A stretch of DNA of 64,000 bases from a virus. This document shows, piece by piece, positions 962 through 47,800 of this stretch; the stretch's first letter is position 1; each line of letters opens with the position of its first letter. The notes beneath the pieces are model-generated. The model had not been told where the DNA came from, made no database searches, and was given only the letters and a program-made list of their open reading frames with translations. A program made the position numbers and the translations under genes. The stretch lies in IMG/VR virus record IMGVR_UViG_3300012920_000028, positions 8,805-72,804 of that record. One strand, given 5' to 3'.

Positions 962-962
962 T

Positions 963-1406: not shown

Positions 1407-1407
1407 C

Positions 1408-28725: not shown

Positions 28726-30264
28726 TCACTCCCCGAACTCGTCAGGCTCCTTCGCAATGATGATGTTGTCGATGCGCAGGAGGAGCGAAGCCGTCGCTGT
28801 TGCGCTCTCAAGCGCGCTCTTCACCACCTTGAGGGGTTCAACCACGTTCTCTTCCGCCATATCCACCACGCCGCCGGTATAGACGTTCAAACCGGCATTC
28901 TTTGCGCCTTCCGCGTGAGCCTTCCTCAGTTCACGGAGCGTCGCAATTGGCTGAAGTTGTCCACTGTTCTCAGCGAGGGTGAGCGGAATGATTTCGAGAG
29001 CGTCAGCAAAAGCCTCGACCGCGAGGGATTCAAGGCCGCCCACGCTCGCGGCGTAGGTCCGGAGGTGTTGAGCCATTTCGACTTGAGAAGCACCGCCCCC
29101 GGCGAGAACCTTCCCCTCCTTTCGAGCGACGTGCACCACGCCGATAGCGTCGTCCATGGCGCGGCTGATTTCCTCGGCAGTCTGCTGGGTAGGGGCACTG
29201 ACGACGAGAGAAACCGCATTGGCGTTAGGGGTGTCCTTGAGAATGAAGAAGCCACGCTGACCTGCGCTGGCACTCACTTCCTCAATGCTTCCACACGTGC
29301 CGAGGTCTTCGACCTCAAGGTCTTCGAGACCGGAAACGATGAGAGCACCCGTAGCGTCGGCCACAGCCTCAAGATTGGAAGCAGCGCAGCGACGGCACGC
29401 AATGATGCCGTGGCGCGCGAACAGTTCCGCAAGGGCTGGGTTGATGTCCTTTGACGCAAGAACCACGCTTGCTCCGAGGCCGAGAATGTGGTCGGCCATT
29501 CCCTGCAAGAGATTGCGCTGGTTCGCACGGAAGGCCTCAGCGTCCTGCGCCGTGTTGAATTGAAGGTTCGTTCCCTTCGCCATTGCCGGAAGGTCGAGAG
29601 CACCGTCCACGAGCGCGATGGAGGCATTCTCAATGTCCGAAGGCATGGCGTTGTGCATCTTCACCTGACCGATGACAATTCCGTTCGGAGCGTAAGAGTC
29701 CGTGACGGGTGAACCGTAGCGAGGAATGATGTTGATTGAGCCCGGGGAAGCATTCTCCGTCGCCTCCACGCACAGGACTGCGAGATGGTCTTTCGACTCC
29801 TCAGCAGACTTCCCCGTCATGGCGGTCTTCGCCACTTCGAGAAGGTAGTCTTCCGCAGGAAGGGTGAGCGTTTCGGCAACCTCCTGACACTTCTTCAAGG
29901 CCAGATGGTAGCCGCGAACAATGGTCGTCGGGTGGACCTTCTTCGCGATGAGGTCCTCCGCTTGCTTCAGGAGTTCACCTGTGATGACGATTGCTGACGT
30001 CGTTCCGTCGTAGCACTCCTCTTCCTGCGTGCGCGCGACCTCGACCATCATGTGTGCCGTGGCGTGGGTGAAATTGGTTTCCTTGAGAATGGTGGCCCCG
30101 TCGTTCGTCACTACCGTACGACCGCTCCGGTCAACGAGCATCTTGTCCATTCCCATAGGGCCGAGGGTCGAACGGACCAATTCGGCGACAAACTTGCCGA
30201 TTCCGATGTTGACCTCTTGGGCCGTCTGCGTCTTCTGCTGCTTGGCGTCTGTGGCTTGACTCAT
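28726..30264 (-). CDS. Group II chaperonin (thermosome subunit)
   Basis: STLGPMGMDKML, TNDGATIL, YDGTTS, VHPTTI, AGGGA, VVEPLKV, LLRID. Confidence 0.96.
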   Translation of the reverse strand: MSQATDAKQQKTQTAQEVNIGIGKFVAELVRSTLGPMGMDKMLVDRSGRTVVTNDGATILKETNFTHATAHMMVEVARTQEEECYDGTTSAIVITGELLKQAEDLIAKKVHPTTIVRGYHLALKKCQEVAETLTLPAEDYLLEVAKTAMTGKSAEESKDHLAVLCVEATENASPGSINIIPRYGSPVTDSYAPNGIVIGQVKMHNAMPSDIENASIALVDGALDLPAMAKGTNLQFNTAQDAEAFRANQRNLLQGMADHILGLGASVVLASKDINPALAELFARHGIIACRRCAASNLEAVADATGALIVSGLEDLEVEDLGTCGSIEEVSASAGQRGFFILKDTPNANAVSLVVSAPTQQTAEEISRAMDDAIGVVHVARKEGKVLAGGGASQVEMAQHLRTYAASVGGLESLAVEAFADALEIIPLTLAENSGQLQPIATLRELRKAHAEGAKNAGLNVYTGGVVDMAEENVVEPLKVVKSALESATATASLLLRIDNIIIAKEPDEFGE

Positions 30265-32384: not shown

Positions 32385-32762
32385 TTAAATGCTCTTCATC
32401 CCAATGTAGGCGATTGCGAATCCACCGGGAGTCGCGACTTTCGGGTCAAGGTTCAACAGTTCAACACCTATCCAACTCATCGCCGACCCTACGCCAACGA
32501 GCGCGATAGCGCCAACCGCTTGCTGCATCCACCAATCGGAGTCCCGCCCTGCGAGGCCCGAAAGTCCGTAAAACGACCCTGCGCTCTTGTCCACGCCCAT
32601 ATAGAGCCCATTCCTTCGCTTCGATAGCGGGGCGGCGCTCTTCTCATACGCGGGGTTGAGGGCGAGGTTTGTGAAGTCGTTGGCCCACGTCCTCGCCATG
32701 GGGTCGTGCGCGTGCGGGTGATAGCGCGTCGTCTTGCGGTGCATGTCGTCGTGTCCCATCAT
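32385..32762 (-). CDS. Membrane protein (putative virion)
   Basis: YGLSGLAG followed by two hydrophobic helices. Confidence 0.6.
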   Translation of the reverse strand: MMGHDDMHRKTTRYHPHAHDPMARTWANDFTNLALNPAYEKSAAPLSKRRNGLYMGVDKSAGSFYGLSGLAGRDSDWWMQQAVGAIALVGVGSAMSWIGVELLNLDPKVATPGGFAIAYIGMKSI

Positions 32763-32763
32763 T

Positions 32764-33603
32764 TCACACCCGTTTGTATCGCCCGTCAATGAACGGCCTC
32801 TCTTCGATGGGGACTCCTTCGAAGGGGAACGAATCATAGTTCGGGTCCAGCAAGAATGTCGTCATAATGGTCGTTTTCCCCGATTTCACCCGCTTCTGAA
32901 GCGAGCGCATGGTGGAAATGAGAGAACGGTAGGTTTTGAGAGGCGGTGCGCTCCCGCTCTTCATCTTGACGCCGTCTACTTTCAAGTCCTGACAGGAAAG
33001 GGAGAAGAAACGAGAATGAGAAAAGTCGTCCGCATTCAGGTAGTCAAACTTTTTTGACTTGTAAGCCCCGCTCAACGGGGACCATCCCTTCGGCACGCGA
33101 AGGAGGGAAGTTCGAGGCTTGTCGAGTTCTTTCATGACCTTGACGGAGGGGGTCCCAAGCGCCAAGAGGGCGAATGCCTCAATCGAACGAAGCACTTTGG
33201 CTCCTTCCACGTCATCCCAAATCCCACCAGCAACCCTGCTGCTTTCCATGAACTCGATGTACCTGCACGGATGGTAAAGGTAAGCAGATACGCCGACAGG
33301 GTAGAAGTCCGGGGTAGGAGCAACGTCCCACCAAGGGCCATCAGTCAGCGCTTGGTTGACGACAAGGGGTGGATGGTGGTTGTCTCCCAAGTCTACATCA
33401 ATTTGGCGAAACATGACGGCTTTCGGGAAAGTGTTGCCAGCCCCAAGAAGACGTGTCTTTTCATCGTCAAACTTGAATTCCAATAATGGTTTTTCCCCGC
33501 TGAGTGTTTTTATCGCTCTCTCGTGGTCGGGAAAAACCCTCGAAGATGGGGCCTCGTGAATCGAAATGGTGAGCCCCGTGTCCATGCCCATCGAATCACT
33601 CAC
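32764..33603 (-). CDS. Hypothetical protein
   Basis: 279-aa ORF in the operon. Confidence 0.65.
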   Translation of the reverse strand: MSDSMGMDTGLTISIHEAPSSRVFPDHERAIKTLSGEKPLLEFKFDDEKTRLLGAGNTFPKAVMFRQIDVDLGDNHHPPLVVNQALTDGPWWDVAPTPDFYPVGVSAYLYHPCRYIEFMESSRVAGGIWDDVEGAKVLRSIEAFALLALGTPSVKVMKELDKPRTSLLRVPKGWSPLSGAYKSKKFDYLNADDFSHSRFFSLSCQDLKVDGVKMKSGSAPPLKTYRSLISTMRSLQKRVKSGKTTIMTTFLLDPNYDSFPFEGVPIEERPFIDGRYKRV

Positions 33604-34344: not shown

Positions 34345-34752
34345 TCACGCTCGCTGGTAATGATACAGGCCCGTTCCGGCGCCTCCGATGACGACTCCCC
34401 CTACCGCTCCTGCGATAGCAGCCTTCCCGATGTTGCTTCGGTTCACTTTGTACTTCAAGGTGTCCGCGAAGGCGAAATAGAGCACGGCCGTAGCAGCGCC
34501 CCCGATAAGAGCCGTGGACATGACGTGCTTCTTCGTGATAGGCTCAAGGACCGCACCGAGGTCGCGGTAGGCCATGTAGTCGTGAACCGCATTGAGGCGG
34601 TCGTCTGCCGTCGCCATGTAGGTTCGTGCCCACTCGTCCACATTCGTTTGAGGGCCAATCATCTTCTGCAATTCAGAAGCATTGGCGTCAAGCGAACGAA
34701 GGTGAGAACGAACCATGTAGTTCGAATGACGACTCACCGTCGCTCCCCCCAC
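34345..34752 (-). CDS. Putative virion membrane protein
   Basis: Helical N-terminal domain plus two Gly/Ala-rich TM helices. Confidence 0.6.
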   Translation of the reverse strand: MGGATVSRHSNYMVRSHLRSLDANASELQKMIGPQTNVDEWARTYMATADDRLNAVHDYMAYRDLGAVLEPITKKHVMSTALIGGAATAVLYFAFADTLKYKVNRSNIGKAAIAGAVGGVVIGGAGTGLYHYQRA

Positions 34753-35210
34753 AACTTCTGAACACCTGACAGACCGGCGAAGACCGAGTTGCCCGTGTGA
34801 AGGTCCACGAGGGACTGTGAGGCGTTCTGTCCGATAGGTGCTTGGTGTGGGGCGAAACGGTGTGTCGACGCGCTGGCTTCAGGCGAAGGGAGAGAAGGCG
34901 TCAAATGACGAGTGTCCCGATACAACGGGTCGCCAGCCTGAACGCCCACGGAACGGCCACCGGGGCCGTGAGAACCCTGACCGTTCATGTGGTTCGTGTC
35001 CCGGTAGAGGTCGCCCTTGTAGATGCCTTGGTCAGGACCCGGAGCATAGGGGCGAACGCTACCGAGGCGATAGTCGCCATATCGAGTCTGACGGTAGGTC
35101 TTTCCGATGACGGAAGAAGGGAGTTCGAAAAGCACCGCCCAGCCGAAAAGAGCAAACAGGATAGGATGTCGGTCAGCCACACTCAGAATAGGATGCTTGA
35201 ACTTCGCCAT
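34734..35210 (-). CDS. Putative virion membrane protein
   Basis: HPILFALFGW hydrophobic N-terminus, LYRDT repeated twice, ends FAGLSGV. Confidence 0.6.
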   Translation of the reverse strand: MAKFKHPILSVADRHPILFALFGWAVLFELPSSVIGKTYRQTRYGDYRLGSVRPYAPGPDQGIYKGDLYRDTNHMNGQGSHGPGGRSVGVQAGDPLYRDTRHLTPSLPSPEASASTHRFAPHQAPIGQNASQSLVDLHTGNSVFAGLSGVQKLWGERR

Positions 35211-35214
35211 TGTA

Positions 35215-36441
35215 TCACCCGTCGTAGGAAACGCGCTTCAAGCGCCGGACTTCTGCTGAATGAACGAGAACGTGAGGGTTGGTGTCAGCCTGAGAGGTGA
35301 CGACGCCGAAAGCACCGTTTTGACTCGCCCCGCTGCCGGGGCCAGAGGGGTCATAGGTGCGGACGCGGATAGGAGGGGGTGCATACTGAAGACCGGGGGA
35401 AACCTCCACCCGAAGACAGTTCGCGTAAGCGGAGCCACCATTTGTCGCGAACTTGGTCGGTAGGTTCACACTGTCAGTGACGCCTTGAATGGCGCCCGGG
35501 AAATACAGGTTCCTTCCGTCCTTGAGCCACATGCGCGCACCCGAGACGTATGTCCCAGCCGAAAGCGTAGCGCCTGCAAAGTCGGCGAAATAGATGTATT
35601 GGGACGTCCGAGAGGGCCACGTCCTTGCGTCGTCGTCGTTTCCTTGGACTCGAAGGACCGGGTCCACAAAAACGTGCATGGTGTTCGTCATGGCGGTCGT
35701 CGGGGCGGCGGCAACAGGGACGGGTTCTCCGAAAGAAAAGGTCGGCTTCCCGGCAATCCCCACATAGGGATGATATGCGCCGGGCGCAAGAGTAAGGCCG
35801 TTAGGCGTCATGAACGTCTTGTTCGGGACACCGGGCGTGTTATAGAAGTCAGGGGAATGGACGATACCGTAGGCGTTGTTCAGGAGGCTCGTTTCGGAGC
35901 CAAAAACATCATTGTGTGGAATCACGGCACCGCCGCTGAATCCAAGATTCTTTGGAGTGGCGAGGCCAGAACGTGAGGTGTACCCTCCAGCGCGGTCGGC
36001 ATCGAGGGGTTGACCGAAAACTTCCGTGGAGGGACGAATCCTGTTCCGGAGCACTACGCGAACGCGGCCGTCGAAATCTTCGGGGAGGTCAGGGTTGTAC
36101 AGCAAAGTGTAGCCGGCACCGGGGGAACCACCGTCAATCGCTTGGAAATTCGAAAGCAGGCGCCCCGTTTCGGGTTGGGAGAGCAGTTCAGCCGCGCTCG
36201 TGTTTTCATTCCGCCAGTCGTCGAGTTCCACATAGACCTCAAGGTAGGGGTTATCCGAAACCACACGGATTTCGTACAGGTCGCCGCGCTCCTTCGAATC
36301 GAGGAGGACGTATTCTCCACCCGAGTCAAGAATGAGGTTCCGGATTGACTCCCGAACCATTCGACGGTCAACGCGGCCTTTCTGCGTGACGTAAGGGGCA
36401 TTATCCGCGACATTCGCGGCGATGATGCTTTCTTCAGACAC
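35215..36441 (-). CDS. Putative structural (vertex/penton-like) beta protein
   Basis: 408 aa, beta-strand rich, in the capsid cluster. Inference only. Confidence 0.5.
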   Translation of the reverse strand: MSEESIIAANVADNAPYVTQKGRVDRRMVRESIRNLILDSGGEYVLLDSKERGDLYEIRVVSDNPYLEVYVELDDWRNENTSAAELLSQPETGRLLSNFQAIDGGSPGAGYTLLYNPDLPEDFDGRVRVVLRNRIRPSTEVFGQPLDADRAGGYTSRSGLATPKNLGFSGGAVIPHNDVFGSETSLLNNAYGIVHSPDFYNTPGVPNKTFMTPNGLTLAPGAYHPYVGIAGKPTFSFGEPVPVAAAPTTAMTNTMHVFVDPVLRVQGNDDDARTWPSRTSQYIYFADFAGATLSAGTYVSGARMWLKDGRNLYFPGAIQGVTDSVNLPTKFATNGGSAYANCLRVEVSPGLQYAPPPIRVRTYDPSGPGSGASQNGAFGVVTSQADTNPHVLVHSAEVRRLKRVSYDG

Positions 36442-36456
36442 GCTGAATCACCCCCC

Positions 36457-37401
36457 TCACTTCGGGAAGTACTCAGCGAGCAGACTCCCCGTAGTCGGAA
36501 TACCGGCCGGATTGATGATTTTGAACGTGAGGCGTCCACCCGTGCGGGCTTTGATTTCAGCGAGTTGGTTCATGCTGAGTTCCACCACGCGGTATTTCCA
36601 GCCGATGAGGCGAAGGCGACCGTCCACGATGTATTCTTCCGAGTCGTTGACCATCCTGAACGTAGGCAGGTTGTTCTCGCCGTGCTCAATCCAGATGGAG
36701 TATTCCCAGTTCGGGTCGTCACAGGAGGAAATCTGCCCGTCAATGAATCCAGAGAGGCCGAAGAGAGAGGACGTTCCGACCGAACCTGATTCCGTCTCAG
36801 GCGCTTCGTCGAGCACGAACTTGGGTACCCCCGACGGATGGCGCAGGTACATTTTGGGAGAGACGAGACCGGTGGCGGTCCCGCGGAAGCCGAGGGGGAT
36901 AGACTGGTCCGCGTCTTCGTCGGAAGGGGGGAGGCCGGGGTCGGTGGCCGAACTCGCGACGAGGTATTCGCCGTTCGTGGTGTCCACGAACTTTGGCTGC
37001 TGAGGGATGGTCGGGCACAATTGGTAGAGGTGACCGAAGTAGGGTTCGAGGTCGTCGAACTTGATATGGCCCGAGTCGTAGTTGGGGGAAAGCACCGTCG
37101 AGGTGACGCTACCCGTAGATGGGGAACCGTTGGGGAACATTGCCGCCGTAATCGAATTCTGTCCGTAGCGAATAAGCGCCGCGTCGGTGATTTGGTTTGA
37201 CCCCACCGTCACACTGTGCGTGTCCGTGAAGAAGAGGTCCACCGTAAGTGCCTCCACGCTCTCAACGAGAACGAAGCGGTCTCGAATCTTGCACAGGAAA
37301 CCGGGTTTCAGTGCAATTCCTTCGCCGCTGCTGCCATGTCCTTGTCCAAACGGGGCGCCGAAGACGCTGCCCGCGCGGATTCCTTGATTTCCATTCGCCA
37401 T
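36457..37401 (-). CDS. Candidate jelly-roll capsid protein
   Basis: Beta-rich 314 aa ending RLRLIGWKYRVVEL, reminiscent of the last strand of vertical jelly rolls. Position fits. Confidence 0.45.
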   Translation of the reverse strand: MANGNQGIRAGSVFGAPFGQGHGSSGEGIALKPGFLCKIRDRFVLVESVEALTVDLFFTDTHSVTVGSNQITDAALIRYGQNSITAAMFPNGSPSTGSVTSTVLSPNYDSGHIKFDDLEPYFGHLYQLCPTIPQQPKFVDTTNGEYLVASSATDPGLPPSDEDADQSIPLGFRGTATGLVSPKMYLRHPSGVPKFVLDEAPETESGSVGTSSLFGLSGFIDGQISSCDDPNWEYSIWIEHGENNLPTFRMVNDSEEYIVDGRLRLIGWKYRVVELSMNQLAEIKARTGGRLTFKIINPAGIPTTGSLLAEYFPK

Positions 37402-37512
37402 GTTCTATTCCACCATTTTCTTTCTGTGAGGTGCGGCCGTCAGGCCTTGTGTTGGGGCACGTGCCTCGCCGGTATAAGCCTACCGAGCGACGAATGCCGA
37501 GGTTTCAACGTA

Positions 37513-37632
37513 CAAAAAAGTGCCCCCGCCCGGAGCGGTTCCGGACGAGGGCGGTTCCCATCCCCCGGGCGTCCCCGGGGGTGGGGTCTGACTACCCACG
37601 TCACCGTGGGTGACTACTCAGTCAGACTGAGC
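37513..37632 (-). terminator. Three stem-loops followed by a T-tract
   Basis: Minus strand: GTCTGACT...AGTCAGAC enclosing ACCCACG/CGTGGGT, then CCCACCCCCGGG/CCCGGGGGATGGG, then GCCC.CG.CCGGA/TCCGG.CG.GGGC, then TTTTTT. Confidence 0.7.
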
Positions 37633-37662
37633 AGGTTCTTTGAGCGGTGTGCGTTGCACGCT

Positions 37663-38547
37663 TCAAGCGACGCGGCAGAGCGACACGACGCTGATGATAC
37701 CGGCGTTGTTCGCCAGTTCGTCGTCGATGTCGTCCCAAGCGTAGTTGGTCGAAGCGCCCGCGGTTCCGTCGTTGAGTTGACCGATGGTGATGTCACCACT
37801 GTTCAACGTGTTGAGGTCACCCGCAGCGAAGTTGACGCCCGTGCCGGCGAAGCCGGCGGTGAGGGCCTCGCCCACTCCGGACAGGTCGAGCACACCGACG
37901 CCGCCGCCGGGGGCACCGGCGGTTGCCATCGTTGCGTTGACCTGCGAGTTCTCAAACGACATCTCCATTGCGCGCGAGTACACGTTGTTCCCATCTGGAC
38001 CTTGCACGACGCCGGCGTTGGGGCCGACGGCGAAGGTGTTGGGCGCGGCTTCTGCCAGCACATACGGGGCCAGCAGCGTGGCTGCGGGGCTCGCACCGTC
38101 CATGGTGGTCATTTCAATTGCGCCGACGCTCAAGATGGCTTCGACGTTGAACTTCCCGCCCGCGAAGCCGACCACGGTCCCGAGGGCCGTGGACGCCTGC
38201 TGGGGCAGGACGCTGCCGGACGCGACAGGCACCTCGCGGATGTCACGGACGAGTCCGTGGTTGTCCGCTGCGGTGAAGGTCGTGCTCGTGCCGCTCACGT
38301 CGCGTGCACCTTGGAAGATGCTCGCGGCGCTCCACGCCACGTCTTCAATGTCCGCGTCTGTGTCGTCTGTGCAGTAGATGAGGTCGGGCTTCAGCATGGC
38401 TGGCAGGCCTTGTCGGGCCAGTTCCAGCACGTTCTTCGCACCGTTCTCAGTCACGTTGTTGGTTGTCGCTTCGATGACCAGCAGGTTGGTTCGCACCACC
38501 TGCAATTGGGCACCGTAAGCGACGTCAAGTCCTCCGATTGCTCCCAT
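37663..38547 (-). CDS. Abundant structural protein (Ala/Gly/Thr/Asn-rich)
   Basis: 294 aa with strong C/G-ending codon bias and a strong GGAGG RBS. Confidence 0.65.
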   Translation of the reverse strand: MGAIGGLDVAYGAQLQVVRTNLLVIEATTNNVTENGAKNVLELARQGLPAMLKPDLIYCTDDTDADIEDVAWSAASIFQGARDVSGTSTTFTAADNHGLVRDIREVPVASGSVLPQQASTALGTVVGFAGGKFNVEAILSVGAIEMTTMDGASPAATLLAPYVLAEAAPNTFAVGPNAGVVQGPDGNNVYSRAMEMSFENSQVNATMATAGAPGGGVGVLDLSGVGEALTAGFAGTGVNFAAGDLNTLNSGDITIGQLNDGTAGASTNYAWDDIDDELANNAGIISVVSLCRVA

Positions 38548-38580
38548 GTTCTTGTCCTCCTTGTTCCTCCGAAGACAGCC

Positions 38581-39195
38581 TCACGAGAGTTCGCCAATGG
38601 ACTGGCGCTGCTGAATCAATTCATGATGTTGACCGACAACGCATCCGATGACGCGCCACTTCTCGGCACCCGCGATGGTGGAGTTGCCGTAGGTGGCGGC
38701 GCCGCCGACGACGCGGTGGGCGCACACGATGGTCTTCTCGGGCTCGACGACGATGGGCTCTTCATACCAGACGAAGGGCTCTTCGAGGACCTCGAAAATC
38801 TGCTGGTCGACCACGGGGGTCTCGATACCGGAGATGCGCCACTGGTGCTCGGTCACAAGCAGGGGGGTCACGGGGTACTGGATGCCCATGAGGACGTAGT
38901 AGAACTCTTCCAGAGTTTTGAAGTCGAGAACGCGCTGCGCCCAGCCGAAGCCGTCGACGGTCACGCTGTTGGGGGCACCGGTGCTGCCCGAAGAGGGCAC
39001 CAACCACTGGCCGAAGGTCCCAAGCACGGAAAATTGGTCTGCGCGGAGCACACCCTTTCCGTATTCGCCCTTGGGCCAAACGCCCTTGTTCTCAAAGCCC
39101 CAGTGGGGGTAGTTCGCCTTGACCTTCTGGTCGATTCGTGCAAGGTAGTCGCTGATGACGGCCGTGGGGCGGTCATAGTACGGTCGTAGTTCCAT
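38581..39195 (-). CDS. Candidate single jelly-roll major capsid protein
   Basis: 204 aa with strong codon bias and its own TATA-like box. FVWYEEPIVVEPEKTI and WRVIGCVV resemble jelly-roll strands. Confidence 0.55.
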   Translation of the reverse strand: MELRPYYDRPTAVISDYLARIDQKVKANYPHWGFENKGVWPKGEYGKGVLRADQFSVLGTFGQWLVPSSGSTGAPNSVTVDGFGWAQRVLDFKTLEEFYYVLMGIQYPVTPLLVTEHQWRISGIETPVVDQQIFEVLEEPFVWYEEPIVVEPEKTIVCAHRVVGGAATYGNSTIAGAEKWRVIGCVVGQHHELIQQRQSIGELS

Positions 39196-39347
39196 TCAAT
39201 TCACTTCCTGTTTTGTTTTTTTAGTGCCCATTGTGTTGCGGGCATTTCGCGGTAGCGACACACCCTATATGAAGAGCCGCAGGAATTCGTTAAACATCTG
39301 TTCACGGGTGCGAACGTCTATATTCACGATGAAGCGTCCGCGCTTCA

Positions 39348-39539
39348 ATGGGAGAGGATTCCGAGCCGCGAAAGACCCGAACAATCGGGGTCCGCGTGGA
39401 CGAACACCTGTTCCAACTTCTCCTACGGGAAGCAAGCGCCCGGGGGGAAACCGTAGCCAACTACGTTCGCTCTTCAGCGAAAATGCGCGCTACCGGTCGC
39501 CTTATCGAAACCGAGCGAAAGAAATTCAACGAGTATTGA
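39348..39539 (+). CDS. Ribbon-helix-helix transcription regulator
   Basis: TIGVRVDEHLFQLL...ARGETVANYVR. Divergent from the capsid gene. Confidence 0.75.
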   Translation: MGEDSEPRKTRTIGVRVDEHLFQLLLREASARGETVANYVRSSAKMRATGRLIETERKKFNEY

Positions 39540-39561
39540 CCTTTGTGGGAGGAAGGTCTCG

Positions 39562-39909
39562 ATGCAGCACACCCCCGTACATATGGTTCTCCTTCGTGGC
39601 GGCGTTCACACTGAAGTCACGTTCACCACAAGAGAGGGCTGGCCCGTCACCGTGGAAGCATTGTGCGACACGGGTGCTTCTTCTTCGTCAATTGATTCCC
39701 GTCTTGCAGATTTCATCGGAGTGGAGTACACAGGCACCGTCGTCAACGTCCGCAACGCAAACGGAAAGAAGAAGCGAAAGGTCTGCCTTGCGACCTTTGA
39801 TTGCGAAGCCGGAGTGTTCGAAGGGCGATTCACCGTCAGCGACAGGAGCAAACTGAGTAATCCGGTCATCATCGGGAGAGACATCTTGTTCTACAAGGAA
39901 GAACGGTAG
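39562..39909 (+). CDS. Retropepsin-like aspartic protease (RimK-associated type)
   Basis: ALCDTGASSSSID and DRS....PVIIGRDIL. Confidence 0.85.
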   Translation: MQHTPVHMVLLRGGVHTEVTFTTREGWPVTVEALCDTGASSSSIDSRLADFIGVEYTGTVVNVRNANGKKKRKVCLATFDCEAGVFEGRFTVSDRSKLSNPVIIGRDILFYKEER

Positions 39910-39911
39910 CC

Positions 39912-40901
39912 TCAGTAGGTCAGCGAGAAAATCGGGAACGTGTTGGGGGTTGGGGCCGGGGCGTCCCTACCTTCCAATACAACAGGTGGTGAAGGCGAAC
40001 CCGAGATGCCCTGTGTCCCGCCGAAGACCGTAGTGACGTAAATGGTGCGCCCATCGGCGGACCAATCGAAGCCACCAATGCTCTCAGCCACACCTGCGGG
40101 AGAGTACACCGGGCCGAGAATCCTTTCCCCGATGTAGGTGCTGAGGTCGAGCGTGTAGGTTGGGCTTGCCCCCATAGTGCTAACGTCGTAGGGAGTGGAG
40201 AGGGCGTACTCTCGAATGGCTTTGTTCTGTGAGACGAAAATCTTGGTGCCGTCGTCATTGAATTTCACGCCCGTGATGTTCCCGTTCGTGTTGGCATCGC
40301 TGATGTTCTTTGTAGCAATTGAGGTCACGGAAGACAGGCTGTGCGCAGTGTTGCAGGTGTAGGAACGAATCCGATTGTTCGTGGAAGAGGTAGCCGTCGC
40401 CATCACGGCCTTCGTTCCGTCACTATTCCAAGCCACGGCCTGAATACCTGCCCCAAGTGGGCTGGAGATGTTCCCCCGAGAGGTGAGCGTGCTGGTGATG
40501 TCTTCAGCGGTCGCATAGCCACCCGCGCGGGCACGCTGGTCAACCCAACCACCACCGATGATGTACTCTCCGGTCTTGTCGATGTGAATGTCGCGAATCT
40601 GATTGAAACCGAGGCCGGAAATGTCGTCCACTTGAAGAACTACGCCGTCGTTGTTGTTGATTGCGAGTTTCCGAATCTGTTCGGTCCCCGAATCGTACGT
40701 TCCACCACTACCTGTGTTGGAAATGTAAAAGTTCGCGGCGGTGACGCCAATACCCGTAATGATGTTCGTTCCGCCCGGAGCGTCCTGCGTCATGTTGTAA
40801 TTGATGCCCACAGGGGAAACACCGTCGAACTGGGAGAGGTCGAATGGTGAAGCCGAGTTCGCCTTCTGTTCAGCACACGAACCGGCAATCGCGTTGTACA
40901 T
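39912..40901 (-). CDS. Beta-propeller-like putative receptor-binding/spike protein
   Basis: Repeated blades AWNSDGTK, KFNDDGTKIFV, DWSADGRTIYV and YALSTPYDVST. Confidence 0.7.
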   Translation of the reverse strand: MYNAIAGSCAEQKANSASPFDLSQFDGVSPVGINYNMTQDAPGGTNIITGIGVTAANFYISNTGSGGTYDSGTEQIRKLAINNNDGVVLQVDDISGLGFNQIRDIHIDKTGEYIIGGGWVDQRARAGGYATAEDITSTLTSRGNISSPLGAGIQAVAWNSDGTKAVMATATSSTNNRIRSYTCNTAHSLSSVTSIATKNISDANTNGNITGVKFNDDGTKIFVSQNKAIREYALSTPYDVSTMGASPTYTLDLSTYIGERILGPVYSPAGVAESIGGFDWSADGRTIYVTTVFGGTQGISGSPSPPVVLEGRDAPAPTPNTFPIFSLTY

Positions 40902-40907
40902 CAGTCA

Positions 40908-41411
40908 TCACCCGAGGACGACCCAGTTGTTGGAACCAATGGCGATAGCAGTTGCCCCGTTGTAGGTGCCGAGGGTGAAATCCGAGGCCGCCCCGTTGAT
41001 GTTGTTTCCGTTGCGCCCAATGGTGATGTCGCCGCTGGTGACGTTCAACACAGTGTAGTGCTCCCCCGCGGTTGAAGTGGAAGGAAGATTCACAGTCCCC
41101 GAGGACCCCGAATAGATGAGGTATCTTCCCGCGTGAGTTGCTTCAACCAAGGCGAGTGGGTCCGTCGAAGAGGAAACCGTAGGGAGGCGACGCGCGACGA
41201 AGGATTTCCCAGCGGCAACAGTGACGTCACCCGTAAGGTCAAGCGTGGATTCATCTTGAACAGCCGTCACGATGTCTGCGTTCTCAAGGTTGAGAAGCGT
41301 CTTGACCTCGGCTTCTGTGATTCCGCTTTGGAGGGCAGGCGTACCACTGCTGTCGACCAGCGCTGGTGTATCGCCGCTGCCGCTACCTGAAGGCGGATTG
41401 AACCGAGGCAT
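40908..41411 (-). CDS. Putative spike/fibre protein
   Basis: C-terminal TVNLP...GEHYTV.N...GNNING...NNWVVLG, as in phage fibre domains. Confidence 0.65.
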   Translation of the reverse strand: MPRFNPPSGSGSGDTPALVDSSGTPALQSGITEAEVKTLLNLENADIVTAVQDESTLDLTGDVTVAAGKSFVARRLPTVSSSTDPLALVEATHAGRYLIYSGSSGTVNLPSTSTAGEHYTVLNVTSGDITIGRNGNNINGAASDFTLGTYNGATAIAIGSNNWVVLG

Positions 41412-41436
41412 GTCATCACCATGGAACTTGTCGTCA

Positions 41437-41528
41437 TAAGGCCTCCGCCGAGGCCCCGCGGTAGCGGACGTAGCATGACGCCACCGAGGGGTCCGGGGTC
41501 AGCCCCGCCGAGGCGGGGTGAGGCCTTG
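41437..41528 (-). other. GC-rich multibranch RNA structure in an intergenic region
   Basis: AAGGCCTC/GAGGCCTT outer stem enclosing CCCCGC/GCGGGG, CCCCG/CGGGG and CGGTGGCG/CGCTACCG. Confidence 0.6.
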
Positions 41529-41535
41529 GTCGGAC

Positions 41536-41772
41536 TCAGAATCGCTTGCTGGCACCGACGCCGAGCGTCGCCGCTGCTCCGAGGAGGAGGGCGAGGTGAC
41601 CGACGTCAAGACCGGCGACGACCTGCGTGTTCAAGGTCTTGGCCAGCGGGTTGCCCCGAGCGGGGAAACCGATAGCACCCGACAAACCGAGCAGCAAGAG
41701 TGCATGCCCGTAGTCGAAACCGAACGCGAAGTCCTTGTTGAGGCTCTTCATGAGATTGCCGTATGCGCCCAA
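41536..41772 (-). CDS. Small abundant membrane protein
   Basis: Two GHxxLLLG hydrophobic helices and strong codon bias. Confidence 0.7.
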   Translation of the reverse strand: MGAYGNLMKSLNKDFAFGFDYGHALLLLGLSGAIGFPARGNPLAKTLNTQVVAGLDVGHLALLLGAAATLGVGASKRF

Positions 41773-41781
41773 GAAACCACC

Positions 41782-42825
41782 TCAGAAGAGGTTGATGTCC
41801 TTGCCGCCGAGACCGAACATCTCGCCGTGGGCACCTGCGTGCATTCCTGCGTGCATTCCAGCGTGCATACCGTCGTGGTAGCCGTGGGTCATGCCGAACA
41901 TTGGCTCATCAATCACCGAAGGCGAGTTGCCGAGGAGACCGAAGCCAGCGATGCCGTTGACCGCGGTGAGACCGCCGCCCGAGACCGAGATGCTCGGGAG
42001 GAAGTTCAGACCGGCCGCACGGCCGAGTTGGAGAGCCGCGGGGAGCATGGCCGCGATGGTGAAGGCACCAGCGGTGGCGTTGCTCACGTTGAGGAACTGC
42101 TTCAGCGCGTAGCCAGCGAAGCCGGCCACGGCGATGCTGCTGACCGCACTGCGCATTGGGGTCGCGGTGAGTCCGATGTCCAAACCGACCTTGCTCAGGG
42201 CGGCTTCGACGTAGGCGGGCAGCGACGCGGAGAGGTAGAGACCGGAGCCGAGGGCGACCATGGTCTCGAACTTCATGATGTGCGAGCGGGTCCAGTTCAG
42301 GCCCTTGCTGAAGAAGCCAGTCATCTTCGAGCGCGTGGTGCGGCGGCGAGAGACGGTGCGGCGCGAAGCGGTGCGGCGGCGAGCAGGGGACTTGCGGCGG
42401 CGGCGCGTAGTCTTGCGGCGAGCAGGGGACTTGCGGCGGCGCGTGGTCTTCTTGCGGCGCGTCGTCTTGCGGCGAGCAGGAGACTTGCGGCGGCGCGTCG
42501 TCTTGCGACGAGCAGGTGCCTTGCGGCGACGGGTCGTCGTCTTGCGACGGGTCGTCTTGCGACGAGCGGGCGCCTTGCGGCGACGGGTCGTCGTCTTGCG
42601 ACGCTTAGAGGTCGCCTTGCGCTTCGTCGTCTTGCGACGGGCGGGCGCCTTGCGGCGTCGGGTGGTCGTTTTGCGCCGCGTGGTGCGGCGCGCCGGCGCC
42701 TTGCGGCGCGCGGTCGTGCTACGTCGGGAGACCTTTCGTCGGGCCATGTTCTTCACTTTCCTTTTTGTTGTAGTACGCCTCTTCGAGCCCACGGGGTTCA
42801 CGATTACGAGTTCCTCGAGAGCCAT
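41782..42825 (-). CDS. Protamine-like Arg/Lys/Thr-rich DNA-condensing protein fused to membrane helices
   Basis: About 140 aa of RRKAPARRKTT-type repeats, about three hydrophobic helices and a tail with GMHA repeats. Confidence 0.8.
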   Translation of the reverse strand: MALEELVIVNPVGSKRRTTTKRKVKNMARRKVSRRSTTARRKAPARRTTRRKTTTRRRKAPARRKTTKRKATSKRRKTTTRRRKAPARRKTTRRKTTTRRRKAPARRKTTRRRKSPARRKTTRRKKTTRRRKSPARRKTTRRRRKSPARRRTASRRTVSRRRTTRSKMTGFFSKGLNWTRSHIMKFETMVALGSGLYLSASLPAYVEAALSKVGLDIGLTATPMRSAVSSIAVAGFAGYALKQFLNVSNATAGAFTIAAMLPAALQLGRAAGLNFLPSISVSGGGLTAVNGIAGFGLLGNSPSVIDEPMFGMTHGYHDGMHAGMHAGMHAGAHGEMFGLGGKDINLF

Positions 42826-42983
42826 CAGAGACGCCTGAATGCCCTTCACCGACTTCCCGTATATGAAGAAAATGAGGTCCTATGTTGCGCTATATGATAC
42901 GCATACCTCAAATCAAGGGTCCGGTATTCGGAAATCGAGACTGAAGGAACCTTCATACCCGCGTCGTCCGTGCCTTCGGACGG

Positions 42984-43244
42984 ATGTCCAATCGTCACGC
43001 CGTCCGGGCTCGTAAAATCCCGGTCAGTGTGACTCTTTCACCCGACGACTATGACTTTCTCGAAATGCTCGTCAACACGAGGCGTGTAGCAACAAGAACT
43101 CACGCTATCGAGCGTGCTGTTCAGTTGCTCAGGGAAGAGTTCCAGATGATGCAGTCATTGATGGCCCAACAGAGAGGAATGACCGGAGTCCCTCCACAAG
43201 CGCAGCAGCAACCGCCGAATACGCATCGTCGTCCTCCTCATTGA
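42984..43244 (+). CDS. RHH/CopG-like regulator
   Basis: PVSVTLSPDDYDFLEMLV.....TRTHAIERAV. TATA-like box about 26 nt upstream. Confidence 0.7.
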   Translation: MSNRHAVRARKIPVSVTLSPDDYDFLEMLVNTRRVATRTHAIERAVQLLREEFQMMQSLMAQQRGMTGVPPQAQQQPPNTHRRPPH

Positions 43245-43710
43245 CCTCGATGAGAAGTGAGGGCGTATCGAAAAGGATGCTCGCCACGTTCGTCAGGTAG
43301 TTCTCAAACCCCGCGGCTTCGGTGAAATTGGAAATGCCGTCTTCTTCGAACTGCTCCGTCATAGAAGCGAGCAGTTGTGGCTCCGTCACGGCGGGAATCG
43401 CGAACATCACGACCGTTGATTGCCCCCATTCTTCGAGGTTATACCCATGCACAGTTTCTCCTTCCACGAATGGGAAGGAATGAATGTCCAAGTGCACGTT
43501 TGCTTTGGGGAGCAATTCGAAGAACTTCTTTGTGAAGGTAGTGTCGTTCGGGCGGTTAAGGTCGATGACCTCGCGGGGGATTTCCCCGACGAGACTTTCG
43601 AACTCAAGACCTTCTTCCGTGAGCGCCCTCTCAAGAATCGGGCGGATGATGGTTGAGCCGAAGTCATACTGTCCGCTTGGCGCGGCGTGGGGGAAGGTCA
43701 GGAGAATCAT
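43129..43710 (-). CDS. Zn-dependent hydrolase, N-formylglutamate amidohydrolase / M14 peptidase-like fold
   Basis: TFPHA...D, R..IDLNR, LDIHSF, LLIEV. Confidence 0.7.
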   Translation of the reverse strand: MILLTFPHAAPSGQYDFGSTIIRPILERALTEEGLEFESLVGEIPREVIDLNRPNDTTFTKKFFELLPKANVHLDIHSFPFVEGETVHGYNLEEWGQSTVVMFAIPAVTEPQLLASMTEQFEEDGISNFTEAAGFENYLTNVASILFDTPSLLIEVNEEDDDAYSAVAAALVEGLRSFLSVGPSMTASSGTLP

Positions 43711-44426
43711 CTGTTCAGCCGCAGACGCTTGACCGATTTTACGCTACCGCCAGCGTTCCTTGGTTTCTCGTCACCAATCGGCCGACACTTGTTCCATGTT
43801 CCTGTCCCGTGCGTACTGTAGTACCAGTACTTGTATTCGGGGCTCGCGAAGAAGGGAACGTGTTCAACGTAGTGTTCGAGGTTGCGGCTCTTGAGGTAGT
43901 CGGGGCGGTCGTCAATCCTGAACACTACCTTGTTCTCGGATTGGCTCCATACCGTTTCCGACATCAACTGAAGACGTTGAGTCATTCCGATACCGACGAT
44001 TCCCTTTCCGGCGCCGACGAGCCACAGTTGCTCGATGCCGTCGTTGGTCCCCTTTCGGACGAAGGTCTGGATTTCGTCAATGGCGATGATTCGACGAATC
44101 CGCTTGAAACCCGGCTTATTGGAAACCATGAACACACGTTCGATGACCTTATTCAGCGCCGCTACTCTCTCTTCCTTTCCTACGGGTGGGTGGAAGACAA
44201 TGGAAGGTGTCTTGGAAAGGAGAGCGGCATAGACCTCCATTGGAGTCTTGCACACACGTCCGAGGTCCGTGATTTCTGCCTTGGGGTCCACAAAGATTGT
44301 GTGAAGGCCGTCCTTCTGAAAACGCTTGAACATCTCGGAGACGAAATACGTCTTGCCGCTGCGGGTCATTCCGAGAACTGCGGTATGTCGCTTCTTCATG
44401 TTCTCATAGAGCGCGTTTGAGACCAT
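43707..44426 (-). CDS. FtsK/HerA-superfamily genome packaging ATPase (A32/P9-like)
   Basis: Walker A GMTRSGKT, FVDPK, Walker B IAIDEIQ, MTQR and SQS..KVVF in a stand-alone ~240-aa protein. Confidence 0.85.
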   Translation of the reverse strand: MVSNALYENMKKRHTAVLGMTRSGKTYFVSEMFKRFQKDGLHTIFVDPKAEITDLGRVCKTPMEVYAALLSKTPSIVFHPPVGKEERVAALNKVIERVFMVSNKPGFKRIRRIIAIDEIQTFVRKGTNDGIEQLWLVGAGKGIVGIGMTQRLQLMSETVWSQSENKVVFRIDDRPDYLKSRNLEHYVEHVPFFASPEYKYWYYSTHGTGTWNKCRPIGDEKPRNAGGSVKSVKRLRLNR

Positions 44427-44893
44427 GCTACAACACCAGCACCAACGGCGAGAAGACCAAAGAGACGGCTCGGAGGGACGGCCATAAAGGACTCGGCGTA
44501 GGCCGGGAAGTTCTCCTTGAACCGTTGGCGAAGGTTGTTGTTGTCGGTCACCCGAAGCCATGCTACCGGGTTCATGACGTCGGGGTTCACGCCGCCGGTG
44601 TGCTTCAAGCCGAGAGCGTGACCGTATTCATGGGCGAGCAGGTCGAGGTTCCCCTTCGCACCGCTTCGCACCGTAATGGTGTTTCCAATGGTGACCCCTT
44701 GAGGGAAGTAGCCACGGTTCAAGATGTTGTAAGAGGCACGCGCCATGTCCCCTGCGTACCATTCCTGAATCTCTCCACTCGCGTGAATCGCGTTCACGTA
44801 TTGCGACCAATGTGCTTCGCTGAGGGTAGCAATCCGGACACCATCCTCGCCTACCGCGATAACGCGGAAAGAAGAGAACGATTCCGGCGTCAT
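44396..44893 (-). CDS. Metzincin-type Zn metalloprotease with C-terminal membrane anchor
   Basis: HEYGHALGLKH plus Met-turn (DVMNP). C-terminal LFGLLAVGAGVVAW. Confidence 0.85.
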   Translation of the reverse strand: MTPESFSSFRVIAVGEDGVRIATLSEAHWSQYVNAIHASGEIQEWYAGDMARASYNILNRGYFPQGVTIGNTITVRSGAKGNLDLLAHEYGHALGLKHTGGVNPDVMNPVAWLRVTDNNNLRQRFKENFPAYAESFMAVPPSRLFGLLAVGAGVVAWSQTRSMRT

Positions 44894-44897
44894 GTGT

Positions 44898-47800
44898 TCA
44901 CCACTCGAACATGTTGAGGAACTCGTCCTCGTCTTCCTCCACCCAGTCGTGCCTTGAGGAGTTTTCCTTGATGAGACCCGCTTTGACCGCAAGACTGTAG
45001 TCGCCCATTTTCTTCCCGTCTTTCATGACGGTGTTTCCGAGCGTGACGAAGGAATAGACGCGGCCGGACGCCCATTGGTGCTGCTGAACACCGGGACGGT
45101 GACCGGTGCGCCACGCCGCCAAACCCTTGTCGTACACCTTCTCAAGAATCGCCTTGTCGACACCTGTCGTCTTCGACATGCGGGTGAGGAAGGAGCCCTT
45201 CCCCTTCAAGGGACCATACAAGCGAGCGAACTTGGTTCGGTACTTGGAAGGCGTGGTTTTCATTCCCCGCGCCGTAGCCTTGATGTCCGATTTCCAGAAT
45301 TCGTACGCTTTCGGGTCGTTCACGTCGTACTTGTAGCCTTGGTCAATCTCGTACTCGGCAATCGCCTTCTCGACAGATGTCAGGCCTTTCAGGTACTTGG
45401 AAGGAATCTTCTTTCCACCGGGAGTACGGGGGTTCGGGCGAGGAAGATTCGACAGTTGCGTAATCGAAATGGTTTGGGCCGTGAGGGCTGAAGGGTAGGA
45501 AACGTCAGAAGGGAACCATGGGTTCGGGCGAGGAAGGTTCTCCTTCATCCAAGCATACGTCTTAGGTGCCTTCTCCTTGAGTTTGGCGCGGCCTTCGCCG
45601 ATACCGGGGATGAAATAGACGCGGGAATACAGGGGGGCGCGAAGCCTGATTTCATCGAGGTCCTCCTGCATTTTACGGATGTTCTCGGCGTATTCCTTGT
45701 CTGTGTAGTACGCTCCGGGCTTCGTGTGCGGCGCTTTCTTGGTTCGGAAACCAATGGTGTTCTTCTCGTCGCGGATTTTCGCTTGACCGCCCTTTCCCTC
45801 ACGCTTGTCGTTGTCGCCGAAGACGAAGAGGACCTCGGGGTGGTTCCGGACATATGTCGGAGTGATTTTCTTTGGTGGGTTGTCTTTCACTTCGCTTATG
45901 TTTTTCGCAGGTATTGTTTCTGGTGTGGTCCATTCCATACCGTTCAATGTGAGGTCAAGTGTTTCGGGAACCGATATTTCAAGTAAGGCAAAATCCTCAT
46001 GGTTGGGCATCTTGGTTTTCCAAAACAATGCTTCTTCTTTTTTTGAAGCAAGGTAAATTCTTGGTTTGAATGATTGGATGTATTCTTCAAACTTCATGTC
46101 CGGCGCTATCAAGTTTTTTTCTTTAGCAAATTCGTACAATTGGCCTTTCAATGCTCTTGTAAGTGGGCCATGTTGTGGAACAAGGCCATTTTTCTTGATG
46201 CTTGGTAGGTGTTCTTTCAATGTGAGATGGTACAGTTTTTTCGGCATCGGCAACTCTTCACCTCTTACGCTTTTGGCTGGGTTCTTCTTCGGACCCATCA
46301 ACACAGGCACTTTGCCGTACTTGCGCTTCTCCGTCATCCCAATCCACGGAACGTCGGGGCACGGAGGCATTCGGGAGATGTCGTGCTTGCGCGCCCAGCG
46401 CCACGGGTCGTGTCCCCACACCCACAGGCCGAGGAGGCGCCGTGAGACTTGGTTCTGCGTCTTCTGCTCGCGCACGAGGGGGCCTTTCTGGTCAGCGTTG
46501 TAGGGGAACGCGCCGTGGCGCTTCACGAAGCGCACCTGACGCTTGCACCAATCCCAATCGGTTTCTCCGTCGAGTGGGTCATCGGACGGGCCAGTCCATT
46601 CCTTCATGGCCTTCTCATAGTAGTTCTCGATGATGCGTGGCCCGATTTTGATGTAGTCCTTCGGGCCGGTCAGGCCGAGTTTGGCGCGCATTTTGAGGAT
46701 GCGACGGCCGCTCACACGCCCACTCTTGATGCCCTGAGCGTCTGCTTCTTCTTTGGAGAGACCGGCCTTCTTCCCGAGGGGAGAATCAAGGAACGCCTTC
46801 AGTTCCTTGTTCTTCATGTTGATGAGATGAACCCACTCCTCGAACCACTCGAAGAGTTCCTTTGGTGGGTTTTCAATTTCCCACGGCTCTTCCCCCGGTT
46901 CCCATTCCAAGTGGTTTTCCATCTGGTGTCTTGTCCATACAGGGTACTTCTTCTTTGGTTCCCACACTCGATAGGGCTTTTGAGCCGGGTCAGACCATGG
47001 CTTAAGGTTCCCACCACCTGCCGGGGAATAGAAGGAGCGACGGTACTTTTCTCGGGCCTGCTGGTCGAGGAAAAAGAACTCCACCCGTTCGACCTTCAGG
47101 TTCACGTCATCATCAGGGTTGAGTTCTGATTCTGTGGGGCCGAAGGAGAAGTTGTTCCGGAGGGTCGAAATCCAATTGATGTCTTGGAAGGGGAGGCGTG
47201 CTACGATGAGGACTTGGTTGGCGTGAGGGAAAAACTGCGCGACCGAAGTTCGTGTTTGAACGAACATGTCTGCTTTCTTCTTATCGGTGGTCCATGCACT
47301 GCCAAGTCCGTGCGTCTGCCATGACTCTTCGAGTTCTTCGCTCGAAGCGGGAGACCAAATCGCACGGTAGATGGGTATGGAGTCCCTCGAACCATACAGC
47401 GATTTCCAATGTTCAAACAAGTGTTCGAGGAACCTTTTGCCGGAAGAGCCGGTGTAGCCCCAGCGGCGGAAGTTCCTCTTCATTTCCTTTTTGTTTTCTC
47501 TTTCCACGAAACGCAGCAGACCTTCCAAACCACTTGATGTAAGGACGTCCTTCAATCGGATTCCTTCAGGTGGGTTCCCCATCGGGAGGGCAGAAGAGTC
47601 AAGCAAAGCGGAGAACCTTTCGGCTTGAGCATTTGGAACAAGGACATGTGTCCGGTTCTCAACCGGAGAGCGAATCGTCCCTTCAGGGAGGTAGGAGTCG
47701 TTGAAGTACGAAGGGATGGCGAAAGCACTGTAGTCGCCACTATCCGCCATGTTGTTGAAGGAAATGATGCGGCGGCGTAGTTCCCTGTAATCCCTTTCAG

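Follow-up and report, generated by a model that had tools for sequence, protein, structure and literature searches.

A putative tailless-virion morphogenesis module in a contig of magrovirus group D

We examined a block of minus-strand genes at 34.3-45.0 kb of a 64-kb window, the whole stretch of DNA that was analysed, which spans bases 8805-72804 of a single 72,804-base IMG/VR record (IMGVR_UViG_3300012920_000028, here G000). The gene content of this contig fits magrovirus group D, an informal set of marine scaffolds, and on balance we think it probable, though far from secure, that the block is the virion morphogenesis module of a large (~130-140 kb) tailless double-stranded DNA virus of marine archaea. 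The source record is 52% complete as estimated by CheckV and shows no terminal repeats across its 72,804 bases. From ~22.9 kb to the end of the window almost all long open reading frames (ORFs) lie on the minus strand. The features of the block, in window coordinates and with protein lengths in amino acids (aa), are these:

34345..35210, minus strand: two small genes whose products, of 158 aa and 135 aa, have 1 and 2 predicted transmembrane segments, candidate virion membrane proteins
35215..36441, minus strand: 408-aa protein, predicted jelly-roll, candidate minor capsid, vertex or receptor-binding protein
36457..37401, minus strand: 314-aa protein, second major-virion-protein candidate; codon-biased, with a conserved core and two hypervariable insertion sites
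37472..37477, minus strand: TTATAC box, -76 to -71 from the ATG of the 314-aa gene
37663..38547, minus strand: 294-aa acidic protein from a codon-biased gene; its predicted structure is an orphan alpha/beta fold
38581..39195, minus strand: 204-aa protein, prime major-virion-protein candidate, the most conserved and most codon-biased gene
39266..39273, minus strand: TTCATATA box, archaeal TATA-like, -78 to -71 from the ATG of the 204-aa gene
39912..41411, minus strand: two strain-variable genes (329 aa and 167 aa) with few homologues, possibly for host recognition
41536..41772, minus strand: 78-aa ORF with one predicted transmembrane segment by hydropathy and a sub-threshold match to DUF2107, 'predicted membrane protein' (E 0.013)
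41782..42849, minus strand: 355-aa protein with Arg/Lys repeats, by composition a candidate DNA-condensing core protein
43129..43710, minus strand: 193-aa acidic protein (31 D/E, 8 K/R), syntenic and immediately downstream of the ATPase
43707..44426, minus strand: FtsK/HerA-type ATPase, 239 aa, candidate genome-packaging ATPase (the ORF is open to an ATG at 44561)
44396..44992, minus strand: 198-aa protein with the zinc-protease motif HEYGHALGLKH (HExxHxxGxxH), its 3' end overlapping the ATPase gene

Two IMG/VR relatives were compared with G000, namely G001 (110,123 bases, 79% complete) and G002 (71,058 bases, 51% complete), so that all three records are incomplete (51-79%). G000 is collinear with positions ~31.5-91.5 kb of G001. 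For identities and gene order we used three related loci, L001, L003 and L004. The order ATPase, 193, ..., 204, 294, 314, 408, 158, 135, 191 is common to L001 and L003, and the succession of 204 and 294 also occurs in L004. A large protein collection holds 38 relatives of the 408-aa protein on contigs up to 130 kb, 30 of the 294-aa protein (71 by profile search of 1.84 billion cluster representatives) and 50 of the 204-aa protein on contigs up to 143 kb; contigs of 130-137 kb repeatedly carry members of the 204-aa cluster. Because the contigs of relatives reach 130-143 kb and G000 is collinear with part of G001, the full genome is probably about 130-140 kb, roughly twice what the preliminary description of the window had before it. 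The family of the module is widespread: a profile of the 204-aa protein found at least 596 stretches in metagenome contigs, at least 410 of which encode a relative, and near-identical DNA turned up in runs of 10 studies of marine, estuarine, seawater and salt-marsh samples.

The preliminary description had proposed a stand-alone FtsK/HerA ATPase, and this assignment holds. ORF 43707-44561 (minus strand) matches Pfam DUF87/HerA above the cut-off (E 2.3e-6, 28.3 bits against 23.2) and phrog_2666, a family labelled 'terminase large subunit', at E 2.5e-18. Alignment with homologues of 229-282 aa places the start at the ATG at 44426, the end coordinate of the region in the preliminary description, and yields a protein of 239 aa. 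Its Walker A (G[MI]TRSGKT), Walker B (AIDE) and subsequent TQR motifs are invariant in 10 of 10 aligned homologues. Searched against the PDB, the family profile retrieves HerA/DUF87 chains at E 1e-4 to 7e-3. Identity is 78% to the copy in L003 and 49% to that in L001.

Codon usage sets several genes of the block apart. Among 39 genes, the four lowest effective numbers of codons (ENC) belong to the genes for the 204-aa (34.3), 355-aa (36.5), 294-aa (38.2) and 314-aa (41.0) proteins, whose GC contents at third codon positions are 0.80, 0.81, 0.79 and 0.72, respectively; the remaining 35 genes have ENC values of 43.1-57.6. Strong bias had been claimed for four beta-rich genes of the block. It is present in three of them, those of 204, 294 and 314 aa, but not in the 408-aa gene (ENC 49.7).

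The 204-aa protein is 98.5% identical in L003, 87% in L001 and 77% in L004, and it is present at full length in all 83 related loci (77-99% identity), with 51 invariant columns in the family alignment. The 314-aa protein is 88% and 51% identical in L003 and L001, and its family of 27 sequences takes insertions of up to 40 columns after residues 69 and 173, a pattern that would suit a shell protein with a conserved core and exposed loops. Conservation of the 294-aa protein (86% in L003, 31% in L001, 40% in L004) is best over the N-terminal ~60 aa and a C-terminal strand, and many distant relatives share only the first ~60 residues. Judged from their sequences, these three small soluble proteins would suit a bulk structural role, being both extremely codon-biased and conserved. 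The 204-, 294-, 314- and 408-aa proteins drew no match from Pfam or PHROGs; for the 204-aa protein there was also no PDB sequence match and no tblastn match among 50,697 phage records. The ESM Atlas feature matches of the 204- and 314-aa proteins are unnamed viral clusters. A complex prediction for these two proteins, run without controls, returned ipSAE values of 0.00 and 0.00 and speaks neither for nor against binding.

Candidate promoters precede two of the codon-biased genes, those of 204 and 314 aa. The motif TT[CGT]ATATA occurs in 32 of 56 distinct regions upstream of 204-aa homologues, where it usually sits between -62 and -85 (mean 0.38 and maximum 2 in mononucleotide shuffles), and TTATA[CTA] or TTAATAC occurs in 28 of 31 distinct regions upstream of 314-aa homologues, usually between -60 and -79 (mean 2.8 and maximum 10 in shuffles). 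These upstream regions are related, so the counts partly reflect shared descent, although the surrounding spacer has otherwise diverged. The boxes resemble archaeal TATA boxes followed by a ~45-nt leader and a GGAG/GGTG ribosome-binding site. One RNA run contained short contigs only (231-334 nt, ~90-96% alike) that cover parts of the 408-, 294-, 204-, 329- and 193-aa genes; they are possibly DNA carry-over, and we do not count them as proof of transcription.

The preliminary description had expected jelly-roll folds and beta-rich proteins in this block, and structure prediction followed by Foldseek searches gave a divided answer. In the model of the 408-aa protein, which is of middling confidence for a chain of more than 400 residues (pLDDT 73.8, pTM 0.71; 39-sequence alignment), the fold is beta-rich by DSSP, as expected, with strands at residues 23-132 and 376-405 and a partly helical and then beta-rich region between them. 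All Foldseek alignments span residues ~23-405 but cover only ~90-143 of them; we therefore read the jelly-roll as the N-terminal part plus the C-terminal strands, and residues ~133-375 as an insert. The best solved neighbour of this predicted jelly-roll is a capsid chain of SPV1, 6oj0_Z (VP4 or VP10), which scores 2.8 Z units above the next match and covers 143 of 180 residues; a second Foldseek-chain comparison agrees. Foldseek also returned two-barrel proteins (GH172, bicupins, the STIV major capsid protein (MCP) and PRD1 P3; E 5e-4 to 1e-2, TM-score ~0.1-0.2), and a double-barrel arrangement is conceivable. For the 294-aa protein the expectation failed: its model (pLDDT 74.9, pTM 0.79; 39-sequence alignment reaching down to 20-35% identity) is a mixed alpha/beta structure containing 5 helices; it shows no jelly-roll and has no known-fold match.

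The base of the 408-aa protein (~23-132 plus 376-405) is 60-65% conserved, against 36% for the insert at ~133-375, which takes insertions of up to 57 alignment columns. If the model is right, a conserved base carrying a variable insert is the pattern expected of a capsid-anchored, outward-facing protein. The protein as a whole is the least conserved of the block (54% identity in L003, 37% in L001). Because of its low codon bias, its low conservation and its variable insert, it looks like a minor, outward-facing component, at a vertex or in receptor binding, rather than the MCP.

In another reading, the block is a virion module of new architecture (spindle-shaped, ovoid, pleomorphic or other) and not that of a jelly-roll icosahedron. 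The 204-, 294- and 314-aa proteins would then be major proteins of novel fold, and the 408-aa jelly-roll would be nothing but a receptor- or glycan-binding appendage. The pairing of a small FtsK/HerA ATPase with jelly-roll proteins is, in the accessible text of two papers, typical of tailless icosahedral viruses (PMC8328091, PMC8812541), which argues for the icosahedral alternative. In the same direction, inspection by eye suggests many strands in the 204- and 314-aa sequences, and the loop insertions of the 314-aa protein would be in keeping with a jelly-roll capsid. We regard a new architecture as unlikely, if deserving of serious weight.

The remaining genes of the block add candidate core and membrane components. 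The N-terminal ~170 aa of the 355-aa protein carry 7 RRK[AS]PARR repeats, there are 93 K/R residues overall, and the C-terminal half is hydrophobic and rich in Gly and Ala. At the DNA level the repeats form a tandem array of period 54 with about 2-3 copies. Twelve full-length homologues, at 34-68% identity, occur among the 83 related loci. Metagenome contigs from other strains leave out 301-505 nt within this gene, so the repeat number varies between strains. A hydropathy scan (19-residue window, Kyte-Doolittle >= 1.6) predicted transmembrane segments in four small ORFs in or beside the block: 34345-34752 (two), 34734-35210 (one), 41536-41772 (one) and 32385-32837 (one). The many small membrane proteins that had been announced are therefore few, though they are there. 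The 158- and 135-aa genes are syntenic in L003 and L001.

Within the module, the interval ~39900-42500 is a strain-variable island. Contigs of one marine run cover both of its flanks at 96-100% likeness and have zero depth over 40232-42193. The 329- and 167-aa genes have 4 and 1 full-length homologues, respectively, among the 83 related loci. For the spike-like genes that the preliminary description had listed, the domain scans offer a sub-threshold WD40 match of the 329-aa protein only (20.3 bits, cut-off 27).

Two further ORFs flank the ATPase gene. The 193-aa protein has 34 full-length homologues among the fetched related loci (22-47% identity) and no Pfam or PHROG family at threshold. The 198-aa protein, encoded directly upstream, is 54% identical in L003 and 36% in L001; its motif is of metzincin type, its Pfam matches, to Matrixin (E 5.5e-4; 20.3 bits, cut-off 24) and to Reprolysin families, are all sub-threshold, and a hydrophobic stretch, LFGLLAVGAGVVAW, lies near its C-terminus. 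From these sequence features it may be a maturation or processing protease.

The block had been described as lacking a recognisable terminase, portal or tail tube, and this is borne out as far as Pfam and PHROGs can see: neither detected a terminase, portal, HK97 capsid or tail protein among the ORFs scanned. Nor does the rest of the contig hold an HK97 MCP or terminase that six-frame scans could find; PF03237, PF03354, PF05065 and PF04860 matched in none of G000, G001 and G002 (72.8, 110 and 71 kb), with the proviso that diverged HK97 proteins may escape these models. In the parts of G001 beyond G000, 20 scanned ORFs yielded four families at E<=1e-4 (AAA ATPase, AEP primase, the latter weak, YbjQ and zinc ribbon) and no terminase large subunit, portal or HK97 protein. 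These results bear on the idea that the element is a true head-tail magrovirus whose HK97 module sits in the unassembled part or is too diverged, the block being accessory. Its PolB and thermosome do link it to magroviruses (PMC5434244, accessible text), the automatic taxon labels of the atlas clusters read 'Uroviricota', and with contigs only 51-79% complete there is room for further genes. Set against this are the empty searches and three reports of group D without caudoviral structural genes, as far as their accessible portions go (PMC5434244, PMC11706807, PMC10160649). The ATPase of the block is a further obstacle, since proteins of the FtsK/HerA type are not known to package the DNA of HK97 viruses. 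We find a head-tail identity very hard to credit, and a tailless virion with a packaging ATPase is the best supported reading. Such a virion would not be HK97-based, and its major proteins may be jelly-rolls too diverged for detection by sequence, or something new.

The wider gene content of the contig points to its identity. One contig carries PolB, an Rpb1-like RNA polymerase (RNAP) subunit, a thermosome and a serine resolvase, the group D signature, with Pfam matches to DNA_pol_B (2.8e-34), Rpb1 domains 1-5, Cpn60_TCP1 (3.9e-141) and Resolvase (8.1e-38). The annotated genes outside the block are:

882-1406, plus strand: RNase H
1360-6186, plus strand: Rpb1-type RNAP large subunit, 1608 aa in one piece (Pfam domains 1-5, E 2e-38 to 8e-8)
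10887-11780, minus strand: serine resolvase/recombinase (Pfam 8.1e-38)
14292-16619, plus strand: two adjacent N6/N4 DNA methylases
18857-19768, minus strand: PD-(D/E)XK nuclease
28726-30264, minus strand: group II chaperonin/thermosome (Pfam E 3.9e-141)
44898-50588, minus strand: multidomain protein, 1896 aa, with guanylate kinase, DUF7831 and DUF5824 (Pfam)

The name 'group D' was given informally to a set of magrovirus-related scaffolds (Philosof et al., 2017; PMC5434244); in the accessible text of that paper they have no caudoviral morphogenetic block and no closed genome. A later study (Xu et al., 2023; PMC10160649) likewise reports group D without structural genes, as far as the accessible text goes, and Prabhu et al. 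(2025; PMC11706807) write of 'the MCP-lacking group D'. We assign the contig to group D on gene content, which fits the published description exactly. The element is thus already known, and it was overlooked by the preliminary description, which had inferred a much larger relative of Halopanivirales-type viruses or a new order; its structural module is undescribed in the literature searched, where no account of structural genes of group D was found, subscription papers and supplements lying outside that search. What we add to group D as published is the proposal that a conserved block of ATPase, jelly-roll and apparently highly expressed genes is its morphogenetic module. Magrovirales proper (Aoguangviridae, Apasviridae; groups A-C, E) are reported to carry HK97 MCP, portal, protease and terminase genes (PMC5434244, accessible text), of which the hallmark MCP, portal and terminase genes were not detected in G000, G001 or G002; common ground is the marine habitat, an archaeal-type PolB and chaperonin, and a putative Poseidoniales host. 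Magroviruses are described as being among the most abundant marine planktonic viruses (PMC10160649, accessible text).

Two other identities were set aside. A eukaryotic virus resembling nucleocytoplasmic large DNA viruses was considered for the fused Rpb1 and PolB, and was dropped in view of the two N6/N4 methylases, the serine recombinase, the dense packing of genes on one strand with GTG/TTG starts, a thermosome of archaeal type and TATA-box-like promoters; no capsid protein of that group was found in G000, G001 or G002. The 'Charybdis elements' of Poseidoniales, in the accessible part of their description (bioRxiv 10.1101/2025.08.03.668216), are small and circular with another hallmark protein, and so of a different kind.

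Whether group D is viral or plasmid-like was itself left in doubt in the accessible text of two studies (PMC5434244, PMC10160649), and the block could in principle be the DNA-transfer or cell-surface apparatus of a megaplasmid-like element, with the FtsK/HerA protein as a DNA translocase accompanied by membrane proteins and adhesins. The best solved sequence matches of the ATPase are indeed cellular HerA/DUF87 proteins, and transmembrane proteins and a binding-type beta-sandwich are present. Yet the ATPase is a minimal single-domain protein of 239 aa, unlike the long chains (500-700 aa) of conjugative VirB4/TraG or HerA, and its best family match is the phage packaging family phrog_2666. The codon bias and conservation of the three small soluble proteins would likewise be more natural in bulk structural proteins, and IMG/VR lists the contigs as viral. 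We consider a non-viral element improbable.

Several points weigh against reading the block as a tailless-virion module. No particle has been seen, and all three contigs are incomplete. The two MCP candidates of 204 and 314 aa are known here from sequence, and profile comparison finds them similar neither to one another nor to the 408-aa family (hhalign probabilities <1% among the three families) nor to PDB chains; sequence and profile searches of the PDB with the block proteins returned chance-level rows only, of which the 204-aa family had the best, a GH11 xylanase (E 0.17). The model of the 294-aa protein, which is probably abundant, matches nothing in the PDB or BFVD and shows no capsid-like fold. 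As modelled, the 408-aa jelly-roll resembles carbohydrate-binding beta-sandwiches; the jelly-roll of SPV1 has itself been reported to gravitate toward that group (PMC8812541, accessible text). The ATPase profile is linked weakly to viral packaging ATPases: residues 17-223 align end to end with residues 8-207 of 210 in STIV B204 (4r2h; PRD1/STIV-type), which is, like the module ATPase, a single-domain protein of ~210-240 aa, at E 0.084. A tblastn search with the ATPase among 50,697 phage records found no match. Finally, group D was enriched in the cellular and not the virion size fraction, and a plasmid-like nature was considered (PMC10160649, accessible text).

If the block is nonetheless a tailless-virion module, its parts could act together as follows. 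From archaeal-type TATA boxes, the 204/294 gene pair and the 314- and 355-aa genes would be strongly expressed as late genes. The 204-, 294- and 314-aa products would be abundant shell proteins; the 408-aa protein would be a low-copy shell component, for example at or near the vertices, presenting its insert outward. Small transmembrane proteins would populate a virion membrane, the Arg/Lys-repeat protein of 355 aa would condense the genome, and the 239-aa ATPase would pump DNA into a preformed particle, as packaging ATPases of PRD1/STIV type and sphaerolipovirus type do. The protein roles, the virion membrane and packaging into a preformed shell are all inferred.

Among known systems, the block is most like the ATPase and jelly-roll modules of membrane-containing tailless viruses (Helvetiavirae, Portogloboviridae and PRD1/STIV-type). 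The preliminary description had called it a tailless morphogenesis module with kinship to Halopanivirales. The first part agrees with an FtsK/HerA ATPase beside conserved, apparently highly expressed genes, whereas the kinship is not established, no sequence link having been found. With Helvetiavirae/Halopanivirales of the SH1, HHIV-2 and P23-77 type the block shares a packaging ATPase of the FtsK-HerA superfamily. Those viruses have two single-jelly-roll MCPs, where here the 408-aa model is a jelly-roll and the 294-aa model is not, and an internal lipid membrane, for which the counterpart here is predicted transmembrane segments in the four small ORFs near the block. Portogloboviridae are represented by a modelled fold match for one protein, that of the 408-aa jelly-roll to the SPV1 chain. 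SPV1 has single jelly-roll capsid proteins, with VP4 forming hexamers and VP10 pentamers, and an internal membrane with a nucleoprotein core built with a basic protein (PMC8459092), features paralleled here by the transmembrane and Arg/Lys-repeat proteins. Unlike Portogloboviridae, whose circular ~20-kb genome is described, in the accessible text, as having no polymerases or packaging ATPase (PMC8459092, PMC8812541), the element is seen on a partial contig of 72.8 kb that encodes PolB, an RNAP subunit and the ATPase. A double jelly-roll MCP of Bamfordvirae type was not found here, the two-barrel Foldseek matches of the 408-aa model standing at TM-scores of ~0.1-0.2.

The genes outside the block have features of their own. 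In the Rpb1-type protein the catalytic NADFDGD motif is intact at residue 690, and no Rpb2-type partner (PF00562, Rpb2_6) was found in G000, G001 or G002, all incomplete; a lone RNAP large subunit carried by a virus would be unusual. The recombinase, methylases, nuclease and RNase H form an accessory set in the style of prokaryotic viruses beside the polymerase genes. The thermosome is 78% and 47% identical to copies in two viral relatives and 31-51% identical (best segment) to the 80 cellular loci compared, and from these sequence comparisons it looks long resident in the lineage and not recently host-derived. Since its cellular relatives are spread over many archaeal phyla, it gives no host call.

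The 1896-aa protein contains 14 NP dipeptides, 11 of them at charged or Pro-rich junctions and one in NPGP, and an HTHPS...D stretch that we presume to be JAB/MPN-like. As parts of it map to separate places in G001, the gene may have arisen by fusion or may encode a polyprotein that is processed. At 50560-63443, on the minus strand, there is a run of very large ORFs (1135, 883, 1193 and 660 aa), and G001 has a comparable run at 89-110 kb (loci L088 and L089; 829, 492, 697, 923, 933 and 526 aa); Pfam and PHROGs gave almost no matches in either. A 139-aa pentapeptide-repeat protein (Pfam E 9.6e-10) lies in the 8.8 kb preceding the window, at bases 6006-6425 of G000 (L002:6009-6425, minus strand). 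A search of 3 and then 401 prokaryote genomes with one profile (A5) gave no match and, having no positive control, shows nothing.

A bolder step from the tailless reading would be that group D is not a magrovirus at all but a new high-rank lineage of abundant archaeal viruses of ~130-140 kb, with its own RNAP subunit and a shell built mainly of folds not seen before (the 294- and 204-aa proteins); its structural module would be sighted here for the first time. What it has in common with known tailless viruses would then be limited to the packaging ATPase and a jelly-roll protein of vertex type. We offer this as a doubtful but not idle conjecture. If the proposed module is real, group D belongs outside Caudoviricetes, and tailless archaeal viruses would include genomes several times larger than those of known single-jelly-roll viruses, complete with a virus-encoded RNAP subunit. 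With a candidate module in hand, consisting of an ATPase, a jelly-roll protein, three conserved and probably abundant proteins and a DNA-condensing protein, the question of what group D is becomes testable.

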